DNA of 64,000 nucleotides. It comes from a virus. Its lineage: Duplodnaviria > Caudoviricetes. The stretch lies in the IMG/VR virus record IMGVR_UViG_3300028374_000002, positions 96,001 through 160,000 of that record. The stretch is one strand, 5' to 3'. The translations under genes and the position numbers were made by a program. The notes under the pieces were generated by a model, which searched no databases, was not told the origin of the DNA, and was given only the letters and a program-made list of their open reading frames with translations. Numbering within the stretch: the stretch's first letter is position 1; each line of letters opens with the position of its first letter. This document shows, in pieces, positions 4,009 to 24,510 of the stretch.

Positions 4009-5793
4009 ATGATGAAAGATAATTACTATGTTTATGCACTATTAGATTCGTCTAAACCTGGTGACTATGCTTATAAAAATATAACTTTCAATTATGAACC
4101 CTTTTACATAGGTAAGGGGATTGGTAATAGAATAAAAGAAACACTACATGATAAATCCCCCTTTAAAAGAAACAAGATATCAAAGCTCAAAGAAGAAGGT
4201 ATTGAGATTATAAGTTTTAAAATAAAAATAGAATTATCTAACGAAGATGCTATTCTGTATGAAAAGGAATATATTAAGGTTATTGGAAGAAGAGACAAAT
4301 CAGCTGGTACATTAATAAATTTAACTGATGGTGGTGATGGTAGGCTTAGTAGTAAACCTTCTCAAATAACAAAAAATAAAATATCAAAAACCTATTTAGC
4401 TAAGAATCTAAAGTGGAATCATAAAAAAGAAATTTTAAACAAAATGTCAGACATGCAAAAGGGAAAGGGAAATGGTTTTTATGGCAAGAAACATAGTGAA
4501 GAAACCAAAGACAACCATTCTAATTTAATAAGTGGAAATAACCACCCTATGTATGGAAAGACACATAGTGATGATGTAAAAGCTAAACTTAAAAAACACA
4601 GAGCAAATAAGGTTTCAAATGAGAGTATAAGAAAGGCTTGTCAAGTATTTAATAAAGAAGTTGAAATGTTTGACCTAGATATGAATTATATAAATCTATT
4701 TGATTCAGTCAAATCTGCATCACTAGAAACTAACATAAATGAGTCTATAATATCTAAGTGTTGCAGAGGCGATATCAAAGACCCCACTAGGTATTATTTT
4801 AAATATAAGAATGATTCTGACAATATTAAACAAAACAAGTTTCTGATAAATAAAAATGAGTATTTCTACTATAAAAAAGAAAAGTATAAGCTTGTAAAAA
4901 GAAACAAAAAAACATGTATCTGCCTTGATAGTGATAACCAAGAGATAGTTATACATATAAAAGATTTTAAATATATATTCGAAAAGGCAGAAAACAACTC
5001 AAATATAACTGAACTATTTATGTTTATTAGAAGCATGGACAATACTGCAATATTATTAAATGATGTCATAACATCTAAAAAATTAAAGATAAAATATTGT
5101 GATATCATAAAATATAGCGAAATATTTAGCTCAGATAAAATGACCAAGGAAGACTTTGATGTTATAATATTCAGCGATGAGTGGAAAGATAAAAAAGAAA
5201 TAATAAAATATAGATTAATTAACTTGTATGGGAAGTCTAAAAAAATTGGTGCAAGGAAATGTGATATACGAGAAATAAAGGACAATAGTCTAATTAGAAC
5301 ATTTTTAAACGATAACCATCTACAAGGATTTGTTGGATCTAAAGTAAAGATAGGATTATTCTATGAGGATGAATTAGTATCGCTTATAACATTTGGTTCT
5401 CTTAGAAAGAATTTAGGACAGAAGAGCAAAAAAGACTATTATGAACTTCTTAGGTTCTGTAACAAAAGAGGATTTTCTATAATGGGTGGTGCATCAAAAT
5501 TATTTAAGTATTTTTTAAAAAAATACAATCCCAAGTATATTCTAAGCTATGCTGACTATCGTTGGAGCGAGGGTAATTTATACAAAAAGTTAAATTTCAA
5601 GTATTTAAACAAAACAATATCAAATTACTTCTATATAATAGATTATAATAGAAAGAATAGGTTCAACTTTAGAAAAGACATATTAGTTTCGAATGGGTAT
5701 GATATAAATAAAACTGAAGTTGATATAATGCACGAACAACACCATTATAGAATATGGGATATAGGATCACTAAAATTTACTTATGAAAGATAA
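4009..5793 (+). CDS. GIY-YIG endonuclease + NUMOD3-like motifs + C-terminal Mom-like GNAT domain
   Basis: YYVYALLD...PFYIGKG; HSEETK-type motifs; C-terminal NHLQG / IGLFYEDELVSLITFG / YELLRF / SYAD..GNLYKKLNF. Confidence 0.8.
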   Translation: MMKDNYYVYALLDSSKPGDYAYKNITFNYEPFYIGKGIGNRIKETLHDKSPFKRNKISKLKEEGIEIISFKIKIELSNEDAILYEKEYIKVIGRRDKSAGTLINLTDGGDGRLSSKPSQITKNKISKTYLAKNLKWNHKKEILNKMSDMQKGKGNGFYGKKHSEETKDNHSNLISGNNHPMYGKTHSDDVKAKLKKHRANKVSNESIRKACQVFNKEVEMFDLDMNYINLFDSVKSASLETNINESIISKCCRGDIKDPTRYYFKYKNDSDNIKQNKFLINKNEYFYYKKEKYKLVKRNKKTCICLDSDNQEIVIHIKDFKYIFEKAENNSNITELFMFIRSMDNTAILLNDVITSKKLKIKYCDIIKYSEIFSSDKMTKEDFDVIIFSDEWKDKKEIIKYRLINLYGKSKKIGARKCDIREIKDNSLIRTFLNDNHLQGFVGSKVKIGLFYEDELVSLITFGSLRKNLGQKSKKDYYELLRFCNKRGFSIMGGASKLFKYFLKKYNPKYILSYADYRWSEGNLYKKLNFKYLNKTISNYFYIIDYNRKNRFNFRKDILVSNGYDINKTEVDIMHEQHHYRIWDIGSLKFTYER

Positions 5794-14023: not shown

Positions 14024-14467
14024 ATGAATAGTAATTTTAAAATAATAGAAGCCGATTCTCTCTTAGAAGGTGAGTACGACAAACCATTATATGATAAGTT
14101 CGTAGAAGCTTATGGGGTTAATAATTTAGAAGTTGAAACACCACAAGGGTGGATTGATATTGAAGGAATTGGAAAAACTATTAAATATGAAGAATATAAA
14201 CTAATCCTTGCTAATGGGTGTGAATTGATATGTGCAGATGACCATATACTATACAGATGTGATAATCTGAACTTTATTAGTAGGAAGTGTGACATAACAG
14301 AACTATTTTGTAAGAACTTAGAATTAGGTGATTTTATAATGACCAAAGAAGGCCCTGAGATGATAATGGATTTTGATAAGACTGGAAAAGAATCACATAT
14401 GTATGACTTACAACTTGGTGTAGGTTCTGATAAAAAATACTACACTAATGGTATATTAAGTCACAAC
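14024..14467 (+). mobile_element. Long C-intein (148 aa), Ser+1
   Basis: VETPQGW, block B CADDHIL, block F MYDL, block G SHN|S. Confidence 0.85.
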
Positions 14468-15184
14468 TCACTTTGGATGCAGAACTTTGCAGTAAAGAGT
14501 GCCAATAGTGGACATAACGTACTATACATTACACTAGAGATGAGTGAAAGAAAAGTTATGAAGAGGTTGGGTTCTATGCGTTTGAAAATACCTATAAATG
14601 ATTATGATACAATATCAAAAGATACTGAACTCATAAGAAGGAAGATAAAGGGATTATCTAGTATATCAGAAAATGATTTATTTGATAAGAAGGTAGGTAA
14701 GATAATGACTAAGTTTTGGGCAGCTGGTACTGCAAATATTGATGACTTTGATTATTATATCCAAAAGTTAAAAGATAAGAGAGATATAAAAATAGATATG
14801 ATTATAGTAGATTATATAACACTCATAGCACCATTAAAAGCACCAGGTGTTGATAGTCTCTATACTAAGGGTAAACAACTTGCTGAAGGTTTGAGGGCAT
14901 TAGGGGCTAAATATTCATGCCCAGTTGTAACTGGTGTACAAGTAGCTAAAGATGCTTGGAATTCATCTGATATAACACTAGAAAGTGTACCAGAATCTAA
15001 GGCTATCGCAGAAACTGCCGACACATTTTTTGCAATAATAAGAACGGAAGAAATGAAAAGGCAAAACCTATTCAGATTTAAACTTCTTAAACAAAGAGAT
15101 GGAGATTTTCTTAAATCACAGGTTAGACTAACATTAAACACGACATATCTAACATTAGAGGGTGATATGTTTGTTGATCAATAA
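14024..15184 (+). CDS. dnaB: gp41/DnaB helicase, C-part, starting with a 148-aa C-intein
   Basis: ...YTNGILSHN then SLWMQNFA; YITLEMSE, IIVDYI, SKAIAETAD, KQRDG helicase motifs. Confidence 0.9.
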   Translation: MNSNFKIIEADSLLEGEYDKPLYDKFVEAYGVNNLEVETPQGWIDIEGIGKTIKYEEYKLILANGCELICADDHILYRCDNLNFISRKCDITELFCKNLELGDFIMTKEGPEMIMDFDKTGKESHMYDLQLGVGSDKKYYTNGILSHNSLWMQNFAVKSANSGHNVLYITLEMSERKVMKRLGSMRLKIPINDYDTISKDTELIRRKIKGLSSISENDLFDKKVGKIMTKFWAAGTANIDDFDYYIQKLKDKRDIKIDMIIVDYITLIAPLKAPGVDSLYTKGKQLAEGLRALGAKYSCPVVTGVQVAKDAWNSSDITLESVPESKAIAETADTFFAIIRTEEMKRQNLFRFKLLKQRDGDFLKSQVRLTLNTTYLTLEGDMFVDQ

Positions 15185-15203
15185 ATTAAAAAAAAGATAA
15201 AAA

Positions 15204-16094
15204 ATGACTAGAAAAATTAAAGAGATTAAGGGACAGAAAGAACAGTTAGAAAACCACGAATATGACTTTATTGACGATGACGACAGTCTAGAAATATCCA
15301 TAGAGATAAATGAAGATGATTTTAACATCTCTGACAATGATGAAAGTGTAGATTCTGATGATGTTGAGAATGACAAAAGTGTTGAAATATCTAAACATAA
15401 AAGTGAGGGTAAGCATTCTTTAAAATATGATTCCATTTTCAAGGGGAAAAAAGAAGAACCTGTAAGTGAAGATGGTCCAGATAATATCTCAACATCTGTT
15501 AAAGATAATATAGAAATAGACAAAACATCATCCTATTACAAGCAATCAGTGGACTATGAAGCTTATATTAGAGAAAAAAAAGTAAAGGAAAAAGTATATG
15601 ATGTTCTTAAAAATAAGACTAGTCTTAGCTTTACATCAAATAGAAGAAAGCCTTCACGTATAGACTTTAATAAGTACTATAGGCTTATTAAAAAAGAACT
15701 AAATGACGAGAATTTTACCAATGTAGAATTATTTAATGAACTATCTGTATACTTTTCTGATAATTTATTTAATATGTTTAAACTATTAGATAATAAGTGG
15801 CGTACATCAATTATTGATGAATTACAAGAGCATATTGGAAAGGGTTCAAACTCTAAAGATGTTACAAACAGAAATATATATGAAGGAACTGAAATAGAGT
15901 TTCTTGTAGTTGAAAATTCAATATCTAAATTAATAACTGGTGTTGTTCTAGAAACTAACTATGAAGATTCTATTTACAGAGTTGACTCTTATGAGAATAA
16001 ATATGATGTTGACTTAGAGGATATCACTAAGATTTTGAATAATACAAAGTACAAATATAATTTAAATAAATTAGATCATATAGATTTTTTATAG
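15204..16094 (+). CDS. Hypothetical protein, acidic N-terminus
   Basis: 296-aa ORF between the helicase and nrdA. Confidence 0.7.
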   Translation: MTRKIKEIKGQKEQLENHEYDFIDDDDSLEISIEINEDDFNISDNDESVDSDDVENDKSVEISKHKSEGKHSLKYDSIFKGKKEEPVSEDGPDNISTSVKDNIEIDKTSSYYKQSVDYEAYIREKKVKEKVYDVLKNKTSLSFTSNRRKPSRIDFNKYYRLIKKELNDENFTNVELFNELSVYFSDNLFNMFKLLDNKWRTSIIDELQEHIGKGSNSKDVTNRNIYEGTEIEFLVVENSISKLITGVVLETNYEDSIYRVDSYENKYDVDLEDITKILNNTKYKYNLNKLDHIDFL

Positions 16095-16203
16095 TCTAAA
16101 TTATTAGTAATAAAAACTAGTTTAATTTTAAACATTATATGTTTGGGGAATATAAAATATTGATATATAAAATACATTAATAACAAAAAATAAATAATAA
16201 AGT

Positions 16204-17400
16204 ATGATAAAGGTAGTAAAAAGAAATGGTAAGAAAGAACCAGTAATGCTAGATAAAATTCTAGATAGAATAGAGCAACAAACTTATGGATTAGATAGAA
16301 AATGGGTAAGTCCATTTGATGTTGCACAAAAAGTAATTGGTGGTGTTGCACCAGATATAAAGACCTCAGTCCTAGATAAACTAGCAACCGAGACAGCTGC
16401 CGCATTAGCTACTAAGCACCCAGATTATTCAATATTAGCATCAAGATTAGCTATAACTGCATTGCATAAAGATACGAAAAAATCATTTTCTGAAACGGTT
16501 AAAGATTTATACAAATATATAAATCCAAAGACAAATGAGAAATCACCAATTGTGTCTAAAAGTTTCTATGAGATTGTTAAGAAAAATGCAGATAAGCTAG
16601 ACTCTGCTATAATACATACTAGAGACCATCATTTTGATTTCTTTGGTTTCAAAACATTAGAGAAGTCTTATTTGTTAAAAATAAATGGTGAAGTTGCAGA
16701 ACGTCCTCAATATATGTATATGAGAACTGCCATACAAATATGGCAAGATAATATTGATAAAGTTATTGAGACATATAATACGATGTCTGAGGGGTATTAC
16801 ACACACGCTACACCAACTTTATTCAATTCTGGTACTAGGAGACCACAATTATCTTCTTGCTTCTTATTAGACACGGAAGATGATTCTATTGAAGGGATAT
16901 TTAACACTCTTAAAGAATCTGCTCAAATATCTAAAAACGCAGGTGGGATAGGTATTAATTTCAATAATGTAAGAGCAAAGGGTAGTTATATAGCAGGTAC
17001 TAACGGTACTTCGAATGGTATAATTCCTTTCTTAAAGATTTATAATGAAACTGCTAGAGCAGTTGACCAGTGCTTTACACCAGAGAGTAAAGTAATAACA
17101 GAGAGAGGTGTTATAAACATAAATGAAGTAGAAAGGGGTGACAAAGTCTTGACTAGTGATGGTGTTTATAATTCTGTCATAAAGAGAAAAGATTTTAATA
17201 AATCAGATGACTTTATAACAATTACAACAAAGAGTGGTGTTAATAGAGTTACTAAAGGTCACCAAATATTAGTTATTAGAGGTTTGGATAAAGACATATC
17301 TAAAGAAGCCATTAAAGAAGGGATTAAGCAAGGTGTATATAATGTAGAATGGATTTCTGCTAATGAATTAATGAAAAGTGATAAAATAGTAAAATACTAA
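16204..17400 (+). CDS. nrdA: NrdA piece 1 (ATP cone + first catalytic Cys) + N-intein 1
   Basis: VVKRNG ATP cone, ATPTLFN, QLSSCFL, GGIG, RAVDQ then CFTPES. Confidence 0.95.
   Translation: MIKVVKRNGKKEPVMLDKILDRIEQQTYGLDRKWVSPFDVAQKVIGGVAPDIKTSVLDKLATETAAALATKHPDYSILASRLAITALHKDTKKSFSETVKDLYKYINPKTNEKSPIVSKSFYEIVKKNADKLDSAIIHTRDHHFDFFGFKTLEKSYLLKINGEVAERPQYMYMRTAIQIWQDNIDKVIETYNTMSEGYYTHATPTLFNSGTRRPQLSSCFLLDTEDDSIEGIFNTLKESAQISKNAGGIGINFNNVRAKGSYIAGTNGTSNGIIPFLKIYNETARAVDQCFTPESKVITERGVININEVERGDKVLTSDGVYNSVIKRKDFNKSDDFITITTKSGVNRVTKGHQILVIRGLDKDISKEAIKEGIKQGVYNVEWISANELMKSDKIVKY
17071..17397 (+). mobile_element. Split intein 1, N-part (109 aa)
   Basis: CFTPESKVIT, GDKVLT, block B TKGHQIL, WISANEL...D. 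Confidence 0.9.
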
Positions 17401-17410
17401 TATTTGTAGT

Positions 17411-17420
17411 TTAATATATA
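17411..17420 (+). promoter_or_regulatory. Phage promoter TTAATATATA ahead of the first intein-splitting endonuclease
   Basis: Exact match to the recurrent intergenic motif, correct orientation. Confidence 0.6.
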
Positions 17421-17466
17421 TAGTAACAATCCTCTAGGGTTTGTAAAAAATATATTAAACTATAGT

Positions 17467-18390
17467 ATGGTAAAGTGTAATACGGAAGAAACAATTAAAA
17501 AATTTAAAAAAAAGCATAGTAATAAATATAGTTATGAGTTAGTTAAATATAAATCAGCAATATCTAAGGTTAGTATAATATGTAGTAAGCATGGAATATT
17601 TGAGATAACGCCAAATAGTCATTTAAATGGTTCTGGTTGTAGTTTATGTGGTAGAGAAAGAACTGGTGAGAGCAAAAAGTCTGATACATCCTTGTTTGTA
17701 AAATCTGCTAATAGAGTACATTCTCATAAATATAATTATAATAGATGTACCTATATAACAAATTTAGACAATGTTACAATAACTTGTAAAAAACATGGCG
17801 ACTTTTACCAACAAGCTAGAAAGCATTTATCTGGACAAGGCTGTAAAAAATGTGCTAATGAAAGCCAATATTGTAATTTCGTAGAAAAATGTGAGAAAAA
17901 GTATAAAGACTATTTATATAGTAAAGTAAACTACAAAGGTATGTGTAGTGATGTTATAATAACTTGTAAAAAACATGGCGATTTCAGTATTAAAGCTGCC
18001 AATTTTTATCATAAAGGAAGAGGTTGTAAATTATGTAAAACATATAATAAGTCTATTAAAGAAGGCGAATGGTTAGATGATATGGGGATAGATAACATCA
18101 ATAGAAATGTGTATATTAATTTTGGTAAAAAGGTTTTCTGTGTAGATGGTATAGATAAGAAAAGAAAAATAATATACGAATTTTATGGTGACTTTTTCCA
18201 CGGAAATCCTGAAGTTTATAAAAAAACAGATATAAATCCACTTCTTAAAGAAGAATATGGAAAACTTTATAAAAAAACAAAAGATAAAGAAAACATTATT
18301 ATCTCAAATGGATATAAGATAATATATATTTGGGAAAATGATTATAATAAAAATAAAAATAAAAACGGAAAGTATGAAAGAAAACATTGA
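17467..18390 (+). CDS. Free-standing endonuclease (CxxHG...CxxC zinc repeats + Vsr/DUF559-like domain) splitting intein 1
   Basis: Three C.KHG.F..GC..C modules; VDG...IYEFYGDFFHG...IWE. Confidence 0.8.
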   Translation: MVKCNTEETIKKFKKKHSNKYSYELVKYKSAISKVSIICSKHGIFEITPNSHLNGSGCSLCGRERTGESKKSDTSLFVKSANRVHSHKYNYNRCTYITNLDNVTITCKKHGDFYQQARKHLSGQGCKKCANESQYCNFVEKCEKKYKDYLYSKVNYKGMCSDVIITCKKHGDFSIKAANFYHKGRGCKLCKTYNKSIKEGEWLDDMGIDNINRNVYINFGKKVFCVDGIDKKRKIIYEFYGDFFHGNPEVYKKTDINPLLKEEYGKLYKKTKDKENIIISNGYKIIYIWENDYNKNKNKNGKYERKH

Positions 18391-18565
18391 AAGTGGAACA
18401 GAATGGATTGAAGATCCTGTTGATTTAAATCTAATTATAGACAATTTAGATTTTGAAGGTATAGAGGATATATCAATTAATAAAATAGAGAATCAAAATG
18501 TTCATGATCTAGAGATAGAAAATCAACATAATTATATTGTTGATGGGCTAGGAATAGTTCATAAC
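18374..18565 (+). mobile_element. Split intein 1, C-part (64 aa), followed by Gly+1
   Basis: [22 protein letters not shown]; next codons are GGT GGA GGT. Confidence 0.85.
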
Positions 18566-19604
18566 GGTGGAGGTAAATAAGCGTATGCTTCCACTTTAAA
18601 AAATTTGGAGAATTGCTGGGAAATTCTTAGAGTTATCATTACTACAACATAAAGAGTAATCTTAAGTGTGAAAGTTAAAAAAATGATAAATTGGACAATC
18701 AGCAGCCGCCTTTCTTAGGGATAAGAAAAAGGTTCAACGACTAATGAGAGTAATGTAGACCACAAGAAATCAACACGAGCACCAAACACAGAAATGTGAA
18801 GATATAGTCTGATCTTGTATGAAAGTATAAGAAATTAGGATAAAGACCCTAATGATAACAAAGTAAATGAAACGCAAAGGAAGTATAGCCATTTATATGG
18901 AACCATGGCATGCTGATATTATGGAGTTCTTAGATTTAAGAAAAAACCAAGGTAAGGAAGAAATCAGGGCTAGAGATTTATTCCTAGCTATGTGGATGAA
19001 TGACCTATTTATGGAAAGAGTTGATTTGGACAAAGATTGGTCTTTGATGTGTCCTAACGAATGTAAAGGATTGGGTGATACTTATGGTGATGAATTTCGT
19101 GAGTTATACCTTAAATATGAAAGTGAGGGAAAATATAAAAAGGTTGTTAAGGCTAGAGAAGTTTGGAATAAAATCTTAGAGTCTCAAATAGAAACTGGTA
19201 CACCTTATATACTCTATAAAGATACTATTAATGAGAGGTCTAATCAAAAGAATATTGGTGTTATCAAAAGTTCCAATCTTTGTCTAGACGGTAGTAGCTT
19301 GGTAAGATGTAAGATTAATGGTGTTGAAGAAGAACTTGATATGGTTACTATAGATGGTTTGTTTAAAGATGGTAAGGTAATAGAAGTTTTATCTAGAGAT
19401 GTTAAGAATGGTCTTGATGAGTGGTGTCTAGTTGAGAATTCAGGAATGATAAACAATAATGCAGAAACAATTAAAGTAACAGACAAAGAAACTGATAACT
19501 TTATAATATGTACAGAAGATCATAAAATATGGACTGAAAACAGAGGATATATTAAGGCAATTGATTTAAACGTGGATGATATAGTTAAAATTATGGAATC
19601 ATAA
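18374..19604 (+). CDS. nrdA: NrdA piece 2: C-intein 1 + extein + N-intein 2; spliced join(18374..18574,18870..19604), 311 aa
   Basis: IVHN|GGG [intron] [14 protein letters not shown] ... ETGTPY ... KSSNL|CLDG; splicing restores the conserved VDQGGGKRKG. Confidence 0.9.
18575..18869 (+). mobile_element. ORF-less group I intron (295 nt)
   Basis: P AATTGCTGGGAA 18611, Q AATCAGCAG 18697, R GTTCAACGACTA 18732, S AAGATATAGTC 18799; P1 GTGGAGGT/GCTTCCAC with U.G at the 5' splice site; terminal G; GAAA-capped P8 and P9. Confidence 0.92.
19281..19601 (+). mobile_element. Split intein 2, N-part (107 aa)
   Basis: SNL|CLDGSS; block B CTEDHKIW; YIKAIDL...DD. Confidence 0.9.
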
Positions 19605-19639
19605 ATATCGGCAAATAAAATTATCAGAAACACACATAA

Positions 19640-19649
19640 TTAATATATA
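19640..19649 (+). promoter_or_regulatory. Phage promoter TTAATATATA ahead of the second intein-splitting endonuclease
   Basis: Exact motif 14 nt before the ATG. Confidence 0.6.
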
Positions 19650-19663
19650 AAATAAAAATAATT

Positions 19664-20515
19664 ATGTGTGTTTCTTCTAATTACTTATATATTATCACTG
19701 ATACAACAAAACCAGGTAACTATGAGTTTGGTAACCTTAAGTTTCAGTTCTTACCATTCTACGTTGGTGTTTCTAATACAGAAACCTATTACAAAAGGGA
19801 AGACGTGCATATAAGGTATGCTAAAATTAAAAAAGATGTTACCAAAAATAAGTATAAGATGAATATAATAAACAAAATACTTAAATCTAATAAAGAACCA
19901 CATATATATAGATTATACGAAAATTCTACAAGAGATTTTATATTTAAAAAAGAAATTGACCTAATACTAATGATTGGTAATAGGTTTGATAAAACAGGAC
20001 CACTAGTGAACATATCAAAAGGTGGTGAAGGTGGTGATACTTTCACAAACAATCCACGCAAGGAAGAAATAAGAGAGAAGCATAGGTTGAATGCAATAGG
20101 ATCTAAAAATAACATGTATGGTTTACCGTTGGAAAAAAGACCATCTCATATTTCAAAACTAAGTGGGACACATTGGAATAAGGATAGTGTTGTAAGCGAT
20201 TCCACTAGAAAGAAACTATCAAATAAGAGCAAAGGTCATAATAATAACAAGTCAAAATTTACACTATTATTTGATAAAGATTTCAATTTTATAAAAGAAT
20301 TTGAATGTTGTATGTATATAGCAGAACATATAGGATCAACAAAAAAAGCTGTTTCAACAACGGCAAGGAGAAATTCGAAAAAAGAAATCCCTTATCACAC
20401 AACAAAAGAATTCTTTATTATATATAAAGAGGACTGGGAAAATAAATTTAAACATAAAGAGGAAGAAATTAAAGAATTTCTTAGAACTTTTAGAAAAAAT
20501 AAAAATCAATTTTAA
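19664..20515 (+). CDS. GIY-YIG homing endonuclease splitting intein 2
   Basis: YLYIITD...PFYVG; GPLVNISKGGEGG; related to the N-terminus of 4009..5793. Confidence 0.8.
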   Translation: MCVSSNYLYIITDTTKPGNYEFGNLKFQFLPFYVGVSNTETYYKREDVHIRYAKIKKDVTKNKYKMNIINKILKSNKEPHIYRLYENSTRDFIFKKEIDLILMIGNRFDKTGPLVNISKGGEGGDTFTNNPRKEEIREKHRLNAIGSKNNMYGLPLEKRPSHISKLSGTHWNKDSVVSDSTRKKLSNKSKGHNNNKSKFTLLFDKDFNFIKEFECCMYIAEHIGSTKKAVSTTARRNSKKEIPYHTTKEFFIIYKEDWENKFKHKEEEIKEFLRTFRKNKNQF

Positions 20516-20540
20516 TAAAAAAATAAAAAAATAAAAAAGC

Positions 20541-20636
20541 ATGATAAAAATAGAAAGAGTAAAAAATAGACCTGTTTATGATATTACAGTAAATAAAAAC
20601 AATAATTTTTATGCAAATAACATATTAGTTCATAAT
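20541..20636 (+). mobile_element. Split intein 2, C-part (32 aa), Cys+1
   Basis: VYDITV..NNNFYANNILVHN|C. Confidence 0.9.
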
Positions 20637-21620
20637 TGTGGTGAGATAGTAGAAGCCACGGGAATTACAAAAGCACAAAAGCCTATATTGGAAAACAAGG
20701 AACTTTTAGAAAAATTAAATCTAGGAGAGTTTTATGGCAAAGAAAGTGTTAATGAGACTGCTGTTTGTAATTTGGCATCTATTGCACTACCTAAGTTTGT
20801 GAATAAGAATAAAACATATAATCATAAAAAGCTATACGAAACTGCTTATACTGCAACTGTAAATCTAAATAATGTAATTGATTATAATTATTATCCTTCT
20901 GAAAATGCTAAATTTTCTAATATATTACACAGACCGATTGGTTTGGGTGTACAAGGATTAGCAGATGTATTTTTCCTAATCGGAATTCCTTATGACTGTG
21001 ATGATGCTAAAGCACTTAATAAAGAAATATTCGAAACTATTTATTACGGAGCTTTATCTGCATCGAATGATTTGGCTAAGGAACAAGGAACATATGAGAC
21101 TTATAAAGGTTCTCCTTTATCAGAGGGTAAATTTCAGTTTGACTTATGGGGTGCTACACCAACAAAAAGATGGGATTGGGAAAAGCTAAGAGTTAAAATA
21201 TTAGAGCATGGTGTTAGAAACTCTTTAACTACGTGTGTTATGCCGACCGCTTCGTGTTTTACTAGTGATGGTACTATATTCACAGAGGATGGTGTAAAGT
21301 CTTATAGAAATATAATGAATGATATGGATATAGATTGGGAGAAAATAGAAGAAACCAATGAGCAAGGATGGATTAAATTTAAAACACCATTAATGGTAGA
21401 AACTAGATTTGGTCTTAGAGAGTCTAATAAAATATTCTACAATGGTCATAAGGAAGTTATAGAAATCGAATTAGAAGATGGGAACATATTTAAATGTACT
21501 GAAAATCATAAGTTCTTAGTAGAAAGGGATGGTGCTGATGAATGGATTACTGCTAATGATTTAGTAGAAAGTGATGAGATTGTTGAAAGTAGCCTAATGC
21601 TCGAAAATACGAGGGAGTAG
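20541..21620 (+). CDS. nrdA: NrdA piece 3: C-intein 2 + extein + N-intein 3
   Basis: ILVHN|CGE (thiyl-radical Cys as +1), VCNLASI, RPIGLGVQGLAD, RNSL..MPTAS|CFTS. Confidence 0.95.
   Translation: MIKIERVKNRPVYDITVNKNNNFYANNILVHNCGEIVEATGITKAQKPILENKELLEKLNLGEFYGKESVNETAVCNLASIALPKFVNKNKTYNHKKLYETAYTATVNLNNVIDYNYYPSENAKFSNILHRPIGLGVQGLADVFFLIGIPYDCDDAKALNKEIFETIYYGALSASNDLAKEQGTYETYKGSPLSEGKFQFDLWGATPTKRWDWEKLRVKILEHGVRNSLTTCVMPTASCFTSDGTIFTEDGVKSYRNIMNDMDIDWEKIEETNEQGWIKFKTPLMVETRFGLRESNKIFYNGHKEVIEIELEDGNIFKCTENHKFLVERDGADEWITANDLVESDEIVESSLMLENTRE
21255..21617 (+). mobile_element. Split intein 3, N-part (121 aa)
   Basis: MPTAS|CFTSDG; block B CTENHKFL; WITANDL..SD. Confidence 0.9.
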
Positions 21621-21640
21621 GCATAGGACAAGGCATCACT

Positions 21641-21650
21641 TTAATATATA
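21641..21650 (+). promoter_or_regulatory. Phage promoter TTAATATATA ahead of the third intein-splitting endonuclease
   Basis: Exact motif 15 nt before the ATG. Confidence 0.6.
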
Positions 21651-21665
21651 AATAAAAAAGTATTT

Positions 21666-22904
21666 ATGGTTAAAGTGATGTCTAAGTCTTTCTCTTCAAA
21701 GCGAATGTTTTTAAAAAAATTAAAAGGTGTGAAAATAGTTGAAAGTGATATAGAATGTGGTATAGATGAATTATTTGCGTGGTATGGAATACCAGAGAGT
21801 ATAAATTTATGTAAAAAAATTGACATAATAAACCTAAAATTAAATAATAACATCGATGATAGGCAGTTAAAAACATATTTAAAAAAATCATTAAATACTT
21901 TTGAAATTAAAAGGTTTTTATCCTATATTGAATATAAAAGTAATAATCCTAAAGATGTTAGTTCAGAAAATTATTTTAAGTTAGTATATGGTAAAGGTTG
22001 GGAAAATTATAAAGACAAGAAAGCAAAGGATAGAAAATCCCCATATGACTTAGAGTATGTTGCCAAGTCCAATAATATATCAACTGATAAAGCTAAATGT
22101 AAGATATCAAAAATGAAATCAGACAAAGCAACTAACCTAGTTGGATTTATAAGAAGACATGGTAAAGAAAATGGTGAAAAAATGTTTCAAAAATTTCAAT
22201 TAACTAGCAAACATACATTAGAAAAGTATATTAACAAACACGGAAGTATCATAGGATTAGAAAAATGGAATAAGTATTTGTTGGTTAAATCAGAAACTTC
22301 AGCATTTAATAAAAATTTTTGGATTAACAAAGGATTTACTAAAAAAGAATCAATCGCTAAAGTCAGAAAAATATCAGACAATAGTAGTTTGAAATATTTT
22401 ATAAATAAACATAATGGTAATATAGATGTTGCAAAGACTGAATTTATCAAATTTATTAGGAAAAAGGGTGTAAATTTCAATAATGCAAGTAAGGAGTCAT
22501 TAACTTACTTTAATAGTTTGTATAAAAAACTAATAGAATTTGGTATATATGATTGTGATATACACTTAGGTGCATTTGGTAAAAATGAGTTATGCCTTTT
22601 CTATGAAGATGGTTGCTATCTTTATGATTTTGCTATAAAAAGTCATAAGCTAATTATAGAATATCACGGTGAGAGATGGCATCCTAACCCTGATAGATTA
22701 TCTGATAAAGAATGGAATTCGTGGAAATGTATTGCTAGTGGTATCAGTGCAAATGAAAAGCATTTAAGAGATAGGCATAAAGAAAAAGTGGTATATGACA
22801 ATGGTTTCAAATTACTAGAAATATGGTCTAATGATACATATAAACTTAATTGTTATAAAATAAATAACTTTTTAGAAGAAAATAATATAAAAATAAATAA
22901 ATAA
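21666..22904 (+). CDS. Free-standing Vsr/DUF559-like endonuclease splitting intein 3
   Basis: C-terminal YLYDF...LIIEYHGERWH...LLEIWS; KHG..G..K repeats. Confidence 0.75.
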   Translation: MVKVMSKSFSSKRMFLKKLKGVKIVESDIECGIDELFAWYGIPESINLCKKIDIINLKLNNNIDDRQLKTYLKKSLNTFEIKRFLSYIEYKSNNPKDVSSENYFKLVYGKGWENYKDKKAKDRKSPYDLEYVAKSNNISTDKAKCKISKMKSDKATNLVGFIRRHGKENGEKMFQKFQLTSKHTLEKYINKHGSIIGLEKWNKYLLVKSETSAFNKNFWINKGFTKKESIAKVRKISDNSSLKYFINKHNGNIDVAKTEFIKFIRKKGVNFNNASKESLTYFNSLYKKLIEFGIYDCDIHLGAFGKNELCLFYEDGCYLYDFAIKSHKLIIEYHGERWHPNPDRLSDKEWNSWKCIASGISANEKHLRDRHKEKVVYDNGFKLLEIWSNDTYKLNCYKINNFLEENNIKINK

Positions 22905-22906
22905 TT

Positions 22907-23014
22907 ATGAAAATAAAAAAGATTACAAAATCACAAACGACTAAACCTACATGGGATATAGAAGTAGAAGATGTTCACGAGTATCTAACTGGAAATATGT
23001 GTGTGTCACATAAT
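22907..23014 (+). mobile_element. Split intein 3, C-part (36 aa), Thr+1
   Basis: MKIKKI...TWDIEVEDVHEYLTGNMCVSHN|T. Confidence 0.9.
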
Positions 23015-23686
23015 ACTGCACAAATACTAGGTAATGAGGCATCTTATGAAGCACAGACCTCTAATATGTACTCTAGAGGAACATTATCAGGTACATTTAT
23101 TATGGTTAATAAGTATCTTGTAAAAGAGCTAGTTAAACAAGGTATATGGGATGATAATATAAGAAAGAAAATTATAACAGAAAATGGTTCTGTTCAAAAC
23201 ATACCAGAGATACCTACAAATCTTAAAGAGATATTTAAGACAGTTTATGAGGTTAAGCAGAAGGATGTTATTGACATGTGTGCTGATAGGGGGGCTTTTG
23301 TTGACCAAACACAATCTATGAATATTTTTATGGATTCTCCAAACTTTGCTAAGCTAACTGCTATGCACTTTTATGGATGGGGTAGAAGAAAATTCTTAAA
23401 AGACGAAAGAGGTCAAGATGTTATACCAAGTGGTGATAATATAGAAATTATTTATAATGAAGATGGTACTCCTAGATTTTATAGAGATAAAAAATCTTGT
23501 CTAAAAACTGGTATATATTATCTAAGGAATAAAGGAGCAGCTGATGCTGTTAAATTTACTACTAAGCAAGTAACAGAAGAAGTTAAAGTTGATGAATCAG
23601 AAATGTCACCAAAAGAATTCCAAACTATGGTTGAAAATTCTAGAAATGCACAAGATGATGATGACTGTTTAATGTGTGGTTCTTAA
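22907..23686 (+). CDS. nrdA: NrdA piece 4: C-intein 3 + C-terminal extein
   Basis: VSHN|TAQILG, DQTQSMN, KTGIYYLR (Tyr pair), terminal CLMCGS. Confidence 0.95.
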   Translation: MKIKKITKSQTTKPTWDIEVEDVHEYLTGNMCVSHNTAQILGNEASYEAQTSNMYSRGTLSGTFIMVNKYLVKELVKQGIWDDNIRKKIITENGSVQNIPEIPTNLKEIFKTVYEVKQKDVIDMCADRGAFVDQTQSMNIFMDSPNFAKLTAMHFYGWGRRKFLKDERGQDVIPSGDNIEIIYNEDGTPRFYRDKKSCLKTGIYYLRNKGAADAVKFTTKQVTEEVKVDESEMSPKEFQTMVENSRNAQDDDDCLMCGS

Positions 23687-23707
23687 CATTTAATTACTAA
23701 GCAAGAC

Positions 23708-23741
23708 AAAAACTCTCAATATAATATATTGAGAGTTTTTT
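23708..23741. terminator. Bidirectional terminator
   Basis: 15-bp perfect stem AAAAACTCTCAATAT / ATATTGAGAGTTTTT between convergent genes. Confidence 0.85.
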
Positions 23742-24510
23742 ATTTCCATATGTTTTCTAAATCTATCCTAGCATTAACACCTACTTCTTTTCCATCTTTA
23801 ATTAAAGAATATTTGTTAAAATCTTTGAAAACATTTAGTATTTCCATCATTTTTATAATTTCTTTATGTTCTATATCCTCATTAAATATCTTAACTAAGT
23901 TATCTACCTCATCGTATGATAAGTTTCTTTTATCTTTGAGAAAATGTGTGAAGTCATAGAATAAATCAGAATATTTATGACCCTCTCCGTTTATTTCTTT
24001 TTTGAGTAAAAATTTACTGAGAGATGTTTCAACACCTATTGTTGGCAGGGAATAGATATAGTCGTTGATTTCAAAACATTTATCTTTATTGTTGTACATA
24101 GACATTGTGTCATTGCTTAAATTTATGTAGTTAAAATTCTTATGGCTAAACTCAATATATTTACTCTCTATTGTATCTTCATCGATATAATCAAATCCTA
24201 TTTTTTTACCAATCGTTAGTCTAACTATTTCAATGAAGATAAAAACTATATCTATGCTTCTTATATCTCCAAAATTATATCCTTTTTGAAAAGTTATATT
24301 GTTTATAACAACGGTTTTTATTTTAGCTATTACCATAGATATATCATCTTTTATAAAATTACTCTCATACATTTCTATATCTTGTATACTAGCTTTTCTG
24401 ATTTTCATACTGAAGTCATCTTGATAGAACAGACCCAATGAAGGCAATGTTTTTAATTTAATTACTTTTTCGTTTCCAAAAAATTTTTGTGAAAATTGTG
24501 CCAATTCCAT
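23740..24510 (-). CDS. Baseplate hub assembly-like protein (T4 gp26/gp51-like)
   Basis: LPSLGLFY...IRKAS..D....D...IFIEIVRLT resembles the gp26-like N-terminal pattern. Confidence 0.4.
   Translation of the reverse strand: MELAQFSQKFFGNEKVIKLKTLPSLGLFYQDDFSMKIRKASIQDIEMYESNFIKDDISMVIAKIKTVVINNITFQKGYNFGDIRSIDIVFIFIEIVRLTIGKKIGFDYIDEDTIESKYIEFSHKNFNYINLSNDTMSMYNNKDKCFEINDYIYSLPTIGVETSLSKFLLKKEINGEGHKYSDLFYDFTHFLKDKRNLSYDEVDNLVKIFNEDIEHKEIIKMMEILNVFKDFNKYSLIKDGKEVGVNARIDLENIWK

Follow-up and report, generated by a model that had tools for sequence, protein, structure and literature searches.

A group I intron without an open reading frame lies nine nucleotides past a split intein in a fractured phage nrdA gene

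Group I introns are well known, as are split inteins and free-standing homing endonucleases, and the combination of the three in nrdA, the gene for the large subunit of a class Ia ribonucleotide reductase (RNR), appears to be new in the phage DNA described here (bases 96001-160000 of the 201-kb IMG/VR virus record IMGVR_UViG_3300028374_000002; the whole of this 64,000-nucleotide stretch is referred to as the window). In fractured genes, as described in passages of Dassa et al. 2009 (PMC2677866), a split intein is combined with a free-standing Vsr-like or GIY-YIG endonuclease, and one fractured locus without an endonuclease is also reported in those passages. The nrdE gene of SPbeta holds both an intron and an intein, as mentioned in a review that cites the 1998 work (‘Lightning strikes twice’, Derbyshire and Belfort 1998; cited in PMC3653736). 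An RNR gene with both kinds of element has been familiar from textbooks ever since. In collaborative homing, which is reviewed in PMC3984707 and involves two phages, an intron that lacks an open reading frame (ORF) is accompanied by a free-standing endonuclease whose target is the insertion site of the intron. The nrdA gene of Aeromonas phage Aeh1 is arranged as nrdA-a/mobE/nrdA-b; it contains neither an intein nor an intron, and its products assemble non-covalently through added tails (PMC3045599). Finally, neighboring inteins influence each other’s homing (PMC10643990), and phage group I introns commonly carry early in-frame stop codons, which halt the ribosome so that the ribozyme folds (PMC3984707).

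In the window, the element at 18575-18869 is very probably a functional ORF-less group I intron that, together with split intein 1 of nrdA, makes up one composite mobile insertion. It interrupts the conserved QGGGKR loop of nrdA directly behind the third Gly codon, 9 nt past intein 1. The features of this region are given below in window coordinates, where IntN and IntC denote the N- and C-terminal halves of a split intein.

18374-18565, + strand: IntC1, the C-terminal half of split intein 1, ending in ...GLGIVHN (weak Pfam Intein_splicing match)
18566-18574, + strand: GGT GGA GGT, the first three C-extein residues, with Gly at +1; the 5′ splice site follows T18574
18575-18869, + strand: ORF-less group I intron of 295 nt (RF00028, covariation, uninterrupted homologues)
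18578-18580, + strand: stop codon TAA of the exon 1 frame, located in the P1 loop
18604-18809, + strand: catalytic core, with the P, Q, R, and S elements present
18604-08/18782-86: P3
18614-19/18699-704: P4
18624-18695: P5 with its extension
18705-18733: P6/P6a
18739-43/18805-09: P7 (GACUA/UAGUC)
18745-18772: insert between P7 and P3′
18787-18798: P8
18814-18853, + strand: hairpins P9 and P9.1, with compensatory changes in 5 of 7 and 5 of 6 pairs
18867-18869, + strand: ATG that ends the intron and is in frame with exon 2; its G (G18869) is the terminal (omega) G of the intron
18870-19280, + strand: exon 2, extein segment KRKGS...SSNL, which matches uninterrupted homologues
19281-19604, + strand: IntN2 (CLDGSS...), the N-terminal half of split intein 2, located at the thiyl-radical Cys and followed by a stop

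The intron was identified in a local Rfam search of 18300-19100, in which the full RF00028 (Intron_gpI) model (positions 1-253) is matched, and the score of 57.5 bits (E=7e-14) exceeds the curated gathering cut-off of 50 bits. The homologous intron of a relative (L004) reaches 70.2 bits, and introns of Staphylococcus, Bacillus, Listeria, and Lactococcus phages share 70-78% identity with the core of the window intron. No ORF is present on the + strand inside the window intron, and an nhmmer search of the 201-kb record returned no intron copy besides the one at 18575-18869. P1 is formed between the exon strand GUGGAGGU (18567-18574) and the internal guide sequence GCUUCCAC (18587-18594), with U18574.G18587 as the splice-site pair. 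A U.G pair is found at this position in 10 of 10 homologues, with P1 98.8% paired, and the terminal G is invariant in all 16 distinct intron homologues. The exon strand of P1 lies wholly inside the three Gly codons and takes up 8 of their 9 bases. Since the guide sequence pairs with the Gly codons, the choice of splice site would be independent of the intein. Based on the extra helix between P7 and P3′, the intron looks to be of the IA type (IA2-like).

The secondary structure is supported by the relatives of the window locus. One relative, a 636-kb uncultured phage (L001, LR756504.1), shares the same layout and has an intron that is 73% identical to that of the window. Further loci were collected by searching IMG/VR and public assemblies with the IntC1 peptide. 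In total, 16 distinct introns were extracted, and ten of them, which are 10-36% diverged, make up alignment A2. RNAalifold analysis of A2 revealed compensatory changes in 37 of the 72 predicted pairs. Addition of P7 and P8 to this structure by hand gave 77 pairs: 96.7% of the cells are paired, compared to 36-39% with slid partners, and 39 of the 77 pairs change on both sides, compared to 5-10 in the slid controls. This pairing signal was matched by none of 500 shuffles. The compensatory changes are located in P3 (4 of 5 pairs), P5, P5a/b, P6, P6a, P8, and the insert helix, whereas P4 and P7 are invariant in A2 and are thus uninformative either way. Based on this covariation and on the score of the L004 homologue, the structure of the intron is under selection in every lineage sampled.

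The exact junctions of the intron are defined by comparison with alleles that lack it. At this site, 26 uninterrupted nrdA genes, the N-exteins of which are 77-87% identical to that of the window, read ARAVDQGGGKRKGS[I/M]AIY[M/L]EPWH. When the intein is removed after Q and the intron is removed after the third Gly codon, the window protein reads VDQ|GGG|KRKGS... and is residue-for-residue equal to these uninterrupted homologues. For the 30 residues at the start of the C-extein (GGG encoded by exon 1, KRKGS...RKNQ by exon 2), the window is identical to four uninterrupted homologues (L095, L096, L097, and L109). Another relative, L014, has the split intein without the intron, and in this case VHN runs straight into an uninterrupted C-extein. 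At the level of the RNA, the computed ligation junction is GGAGGT|AAACGC: 295 nt are lost, the reading frame is restored, and the spliced cistron encodes 311 aa. The empty target sequence at the insertion site is GTTGACCAAGGTGGTGGTAAAMGNAAAGG, and the context in empty alleles is GAYCAA|GGTGGTGGT|AAA. All 11 occupied alleles have GGT as the third Gly codon; the 20 empty alleles use GGT, GGA, or GGG, with GGT in 9 of them. This codon, being always GGT in the occupied alleles, thus supplies the U of the U.G pair, and the constraint on it is, to judge from the codons compared, the mark of a working splice site.

Unspliced RNA encodes IntC1-GGGK followed by a stop at TAA 18578-18580. An in-frame stop at intron codon 2 is shared by 14 of the 16 distinct homologues, which fits the habit described for phage group I introns (PMC3984707). 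A ribosome that translates the 67-codon IntC1 exon would stop at this TAA, two codons into the intron. Self-splicing would join IntC1-GGG to KRKGS... and would thereby give a 311-aa protein (piece 2) that consists of IntC1, an extein segment, and IntN2, and only this spliced form could be joined covalently both to piece 1 (via intein 1) and to piece 3 (via intein 2). The last three intron bases are ATG in 11 of the 16 distinct introns, TTG in two, and CTG, ACG, or CAG in one each. In L001 (CTG), L016 (ACG), and L085 (CAG), exon 2 has no usual start codon ahead of its conserved first 17 residues, and use of the next Met would remove the conserved KRKGS..YLEPWH. At these three loci, splicing is therefore obligatory, as it is the only route to this segment. 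The view that RNA splicing must precede covalent joining of piece 2 is supported and is dictated by the sequence itself.

These results agree in large part with the original prediction, which was made from the letters of the stretch. The ORF-less group I intron it had described three codons (9 nt) after the end of the C-intein is present, as are the P1 helix with its U.G pair, the P, Q, R, and S elements, and the terminal G. The proposed span of 18566-18878 is narrowed to 18575-18869, as it includes 9 nt of each exon. The expected loss of 295 nt and the junction sequence equal what is seen in uninterrupted homologues, and the IntC1-GGGK-stop product of unspliced RNA is likewise encoded as described. 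As had been pointed out, exon 2 shares its frame with the ATG at 18867-18869, a codon that is common (11/16), not universal. The proposal that RNA splicing precedes protein splicing holds in part: RNA splicing is needed for one polypeptide and is obligatory in L001, L016, and L085, but Gly at +1 bars canonical splicing by intein 1, as outlined below.

The intron and the intein have insertion sites that are 9 bp apart, and each of the 11 intron-bearing alleles in which the N-extein is complete also has the intein. A pattern scan of viral contigs yielded no intron that lacked the intein; in metagenomes, at least 120 pattern matches were obtained and, among the matches listed, all are chance occurrences. 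The intein without the intron is found in L014 and, in contiguous form, in giant-virus-like RNRs. The distribution of the pair is patchy: a tree of 37 N-exteins requires at least six changes of the ‘intein+intron’ label on well-supported branches, and the near-identical sister pairs L003/L111 and L089/L115 each comprise one occupied and one empty allele. In L003/L111, there are 6 mismatches in the last 30 nt upstream of the insertion, 4 and 3 per 30 nt in the first 60 nt downstream, and 0-2 elsewhere. In L089/L115, there are 11 mismatches in the first 30 nt downstream, followed by 0 and 0 in the next two bins. Furthermore, the Ser of KRKGS is encoded by AGY in 9 of 11 occupied alleles, compared to TCN in 20 of 20 distinct empty alleles. 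These patches of divergence at the junctions and the Ser codon would be the marks of gene conversion that carried flanking exon sequence with it. Comparison of the intein, intron, and extein distance matrices gave a non-discriminating correlation, in that all three track overall divergence. On the pattern of presence and absence, the split intein and the intron appear to be one composite mobile insertion that is gained or lost as a block among close relatives. The earlier suggestion that both elements interrupt the same short target is borne out, with the intron always accompanied by the intein in the phage clade sampled.

Intein 1 is one of three split inteins that divide nrdA, which spans 16204-23686 as four ORFs. 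The 28% completeness given by CheckV for the 201-kb source record indicates that the source is a huge phage, and a megablast search of 16000-24000 against phage records returned no match. The remaining parts of the gene are as follows:

16204-17070, + strand: nrdA N-extein, ending in ...ARAVDQ (Pfam ATP-cone, Ribonuc_red_lgN, and Ribonuc_red_lgC)
17071-17400, + strand: IntN1, the N-terminal half of split intein 1, starting with CFTPES and followed by a stop (weak Hint/Hint_2 matches)
17467-18390, + strand: putative homing endonuclease, encoded as a free-standing gene between the halves of intein 1 (phrog_681 ‘endonuclease’, 8e-30; phrog_559, 4e-26)
20541-21620 and 22907-23686: two further nrdA pieces

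Intein 1 has the layout of a fractured gene, with the IntN (16204-17400), endonuclease (17467-18390), and IntC (18374-18580) parts as separate ORFs, and all three intein gaps of nrdA hold endonuclease-like ORFs. The endonuclease ORF and IntC1 overlap in different frames by 17 nt, which begin with the IntC1 start codon (ATG18374) and end the endonuclease ORF. In a more distant relative, L016, the N-terminal nrdA piece (509-2941) is 810 aa long and probably contains a further upstream intein besides IntN1. A fourth split intein is found near nrdA of the window, where the C-terminal piece of a DnaB/gp41-like helicase (14024-15184) opens with a long C-intein part that ends in SHN|S; this helicase split intein is also present in L003 and L004. 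The gene starts that were checked within 14024-23000 have no Shine-Dalgarno motif and have A/T-rich leaders, which suggests that initiation in this phage-host system is independent of Shine-Dalgarno pairing.

The two halves of intein 1 have conserved ends. In IntN1, Cys1 and the T..H of block B are invariant in 13 homologues, and 73 distinct homologues of IntC1 end in VHNGGG plus one or two residues (mostly K), followed by a stop. The C-terminal His-Asn is present in 73 of 73 of these proteins. At the +1 position, Gly is found in the window (VHN|GGG) and in all 73 split homologues in place of the canonical Cys, Ser, or Thr nucleophile. Canonical protein splicing needs Cys, Ser, or Thr at +1, and with Gly in this position it therefore cannot happen at intein 1. 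RNA splicing leaves the +1 residue unchanged as Gly. A pattern scan seeded with VHNGGGK also found Gly at +1 of contiguous inteins at the VDQ|GGG site of giant-virus-like RNRs. These contiguous inteins are either mini-inteins of 148-154 aa or endonuclease-containing inteins of ~300-415 aa, and all of them start with Cys and end in HN. A literature search retrieved no paper on an RNR intein with Gly at +1.

The protein step at intein 1 may be a non-canonical ligation, or it may be a cleavage that is followed by non-covalent assembly. For the A-type bacterial intein-like (BIL) domains, cyclization of Asn and subsequent aminolysis of the Cys1 thioester have been proposed. A possible route for intein 1 would likewise start with Asn cyclization, after which the freed Gly amine would attack the Cys1 thioester. 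It is conceivable, at what we regard as a low probability, that the intein and the intron are one homing unit with its nuclease in either element, and that the ribozyme step is followed in series by this non-canonical joining at Gly +1. If this is true, two unusual steps, a ribozyme and then a non-canonical intein, would act in series at one RNR junction. The substrate of the Gly +1 intein would exist only after RNA splicing, a dependence that matters for expression from genomic DNA.

The endonuclease is the most variable part of the insertion. A gap endonuclease is present in approximately 9 of the 16 distinct intron-bearing loci and is absent from 7, one of which, L003, has a nuclease ORF inside the intron. 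In L003, the intron measures 948 nt and has a nuclease ORF of 205 aa (4288-4905) in its P5 region, and the intein gap of this locus contains no endonuclease. The L003 ORF matches phrog_559 and phrog_9084 ‘homing endonuclease’, of which phrog_559 is common to the gap ORF of the window. Pairwise BLASTP detected no similarity between the window gap endonuclease and the L003 intron ORF, which have only this PHROG family in common. The window endonuclease (17467-18390) has no match in Pfam, and a precomputed Pfam match to DUF723 is available for the gap endonuclease of relatives. In L087/L088 and in L091/L092, intein and intron are ~1% diverged, and the ~300-aa gap ORF is missing from one of the two loci in each case; the nuclease gene thus turns over much faster than its host elements. 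Considering where it occurs, in the intein gap, in the intron, or nowhere, the nuclease is a dispensable and movable passenger. It is the presumed mover of the insertion.

Several observations weigh against a functional intron that is mobile together with intein 1. The intron was missed by a whole-window Rfam gathering pass and by a whole-genome RF00028 search, and the single-sequence minimum free energy fold is unremarkable (z = -1.87) and does not recover the core. These are the grounds on which 18575-18869 could be considered a dead intron or a chance resemblance that serves as a spacer between separately translated RNR pieces. Such a reading is already contradicted and has next to no chance of being correct, as the two Rfam scores lie above the gathering cut-off, the compensatory covariation is extensive, the junction is exact relative to uninterrupted homologues, and the exon strand of P1 is constrained. 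Because the local search is clearly positive, the broad-pass misses are attributed to filter sensitivity; AT-rich phage introns can slip through speed filters. In most relatives, P1 contains a U-U mismatch, and the middle Gly codon in these relatives is GGT. No fused IntC1-exon 2 proteins, which would indicate spliced cDNA, were found, a result that is weak evidence; the search for longer IntC1 proteins returned only two N-terminally extended calls, both of which still end in GGGK. For mobility, the mean distance over the first 30 nt of exon 2 is 0.25 between occupied alleles and 0.27 between occupied and empty alleles. As this averaged co-conversion statistic is flat, the signal rests on the particular sister pairs and the Ser codon. 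Sampling is also biased, in that occupied loci were obtained with an intein query and empty loci with an extein query. Finally, the window and L003 differ by 0.10 in the intron, but by 0.33 in IntN and 0.24 in IntC. This discordance hints that the intron may sometimes move alone, with a recent exchange of the intron only between the lineages of the window and L003.

The same discordant distances would be expected if two independent parasites had settled at a hot spot, each of them targeting the conserved loop, with their joint occurrence due to sampling and with no homing as a unit. Introns and inteins do favor the same conserved sites (PMC2814812), L014 and many giant-virus RNRs have the intein but no intron, and the L003 intron has a nuclease ORF of its own. 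We nevertheless consider independent insertion quite improbable. An intron-only allele was not found among the sequences covered, the occupied and empty sisters differ by both elements at once, and elements that are 9 bp apart would, from established mechanisms, have to be co-converted during homing or repair. A different role for the intron is raised by its last codon. Where the intron ends in ATG or TTG, as it does in the window, unspliced RNA could also give M-KRKGS...IntN2, and a non-covalent assembly of RNR would provide a bypass or fail-safe. ATG or TTG ends 13 of the 16 distinct introns, the bases before ATG18867 (gataacaaagtaa) resemble the A-rich leaders of window genes, and NrdA of Aeromonas phage Aeh1 works in two pieces, according to passages of PMC3045599 and PMC2677866. 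With no +1 nucleophile in intein 1, a non-covalent route is also not absurd. However, the lineages with CTG, ACG, and CAG have retained the intron along with the 17 conserved residues that open exon 2, and the ribozyme is under strong structural selection everywhere. In addition, the ATG is located at the 3′ splice site, where it would be engaged by the folded intron, and it may be shared by descent. A bypass is thus judged to be unlikely. A regulatory gate, in which IntC1-GGGK from unspliced RNA acts as a decoy that titrates piece 1 and the rate of splicing sets the amount of active RNR, is very improbable. It is suggested only by the architecture, in that unspliced RNA must yield IntC1-GGGK, a complete C-intein half, and by the dependence of T4 intron splicing on translation and growth state, as indicated by references in PMC3984707. 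Nothing in the sequences calls for a regulatory use, an early stop is a general trait of phage introns, 26 close relatives lack the whole insertion, and L014 has the intein without the intron. The arrangement looks like a tolerated parasite, for which a decoy would be a cost. The preferred reading is therefore still that of a functional intron in one composite insertion with intein 1, and we infer that it splices in vivo and that the two elements home jointly.

The locus belongs to a natural family, with 16 distinct introns and 73 distinct IntC proteins, in which 9 bp separate the intein from the intron and the pair is distributed as a block. What is new is the placement of the P1 exon strand in the Gly codons that separate the elements, an intron that is never without the intein in the sample, at least six gains or losses, and the variable place of the endonuclease. 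This family may serve as a test bed for how endonucleases move between host elements and how neighboring selfish elements help or hinder homing. Another question it may address is the tolerance of a phage for four intervening sequences within one essential gene.

With the introns of T4 td, nrdB, and nrdD (sunY) and of Staphylococcus and Bacillus phages, the window intron shares its small size, its group I class, and its location in a phage nucleotide-metabolism gene. It also has the U.G pair of P1 and the conserved P/Q/R/S core of the T4-type introns. In contrast to these introns, it has no ORF, it lies 9 nt from a split-intein junction, and the upstream exon in its cistron is only a 67-codon C-intein half. 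The fractured genes described in passages of PMC2677866 are similar in that an RNR is split by inteins, an endonuclease lies between the halves, and the phage is known from environmental DNA. In these passages, the NrdA inteins are located at the thiyl-radical Cys, which corresponds to intein 2 of the window and not to the VDQ|GGG site of intein 1, and none describes an intron beside a split intein, unlike what is found in the window. SPbeta provides an RNR large-subunit gene with intervening sequences at both the RNA and the protein level, as indicated in the citing review (PMC3653736). The window differs from SPbeta by its split intein, by the 9 bp that separate intein and intron, and by the distribution of the pair as a unit. 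The SPbeta intein is reportedly contiguous, and its gene is said to be of class Ib.

Collaborative homing shares with the window an ORF-less intron and a free-standing endonuclease gene close by, and the related nuclease inside the L003 intron is the end state that this model predicts. By analogy, collaborative homing by ORF 17467-18390 would fit the picture given in PMC3984707. The window differs in that its endonuclease lies inside a split intein and not beside the host gene, and in that 7 of the 16 intron loci have no gap endonuclease. In Aeh1, as in the window, a phage nrdA gene is cut by a mobile endonuclease and its pieces are reassembled after translation, whereas the window nrdA has both an intein and an intron. 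In comparison to these systems, the intron of the window is an ordinary ribozyme whose partnership with a split intein is unusual and apparently undescribed.

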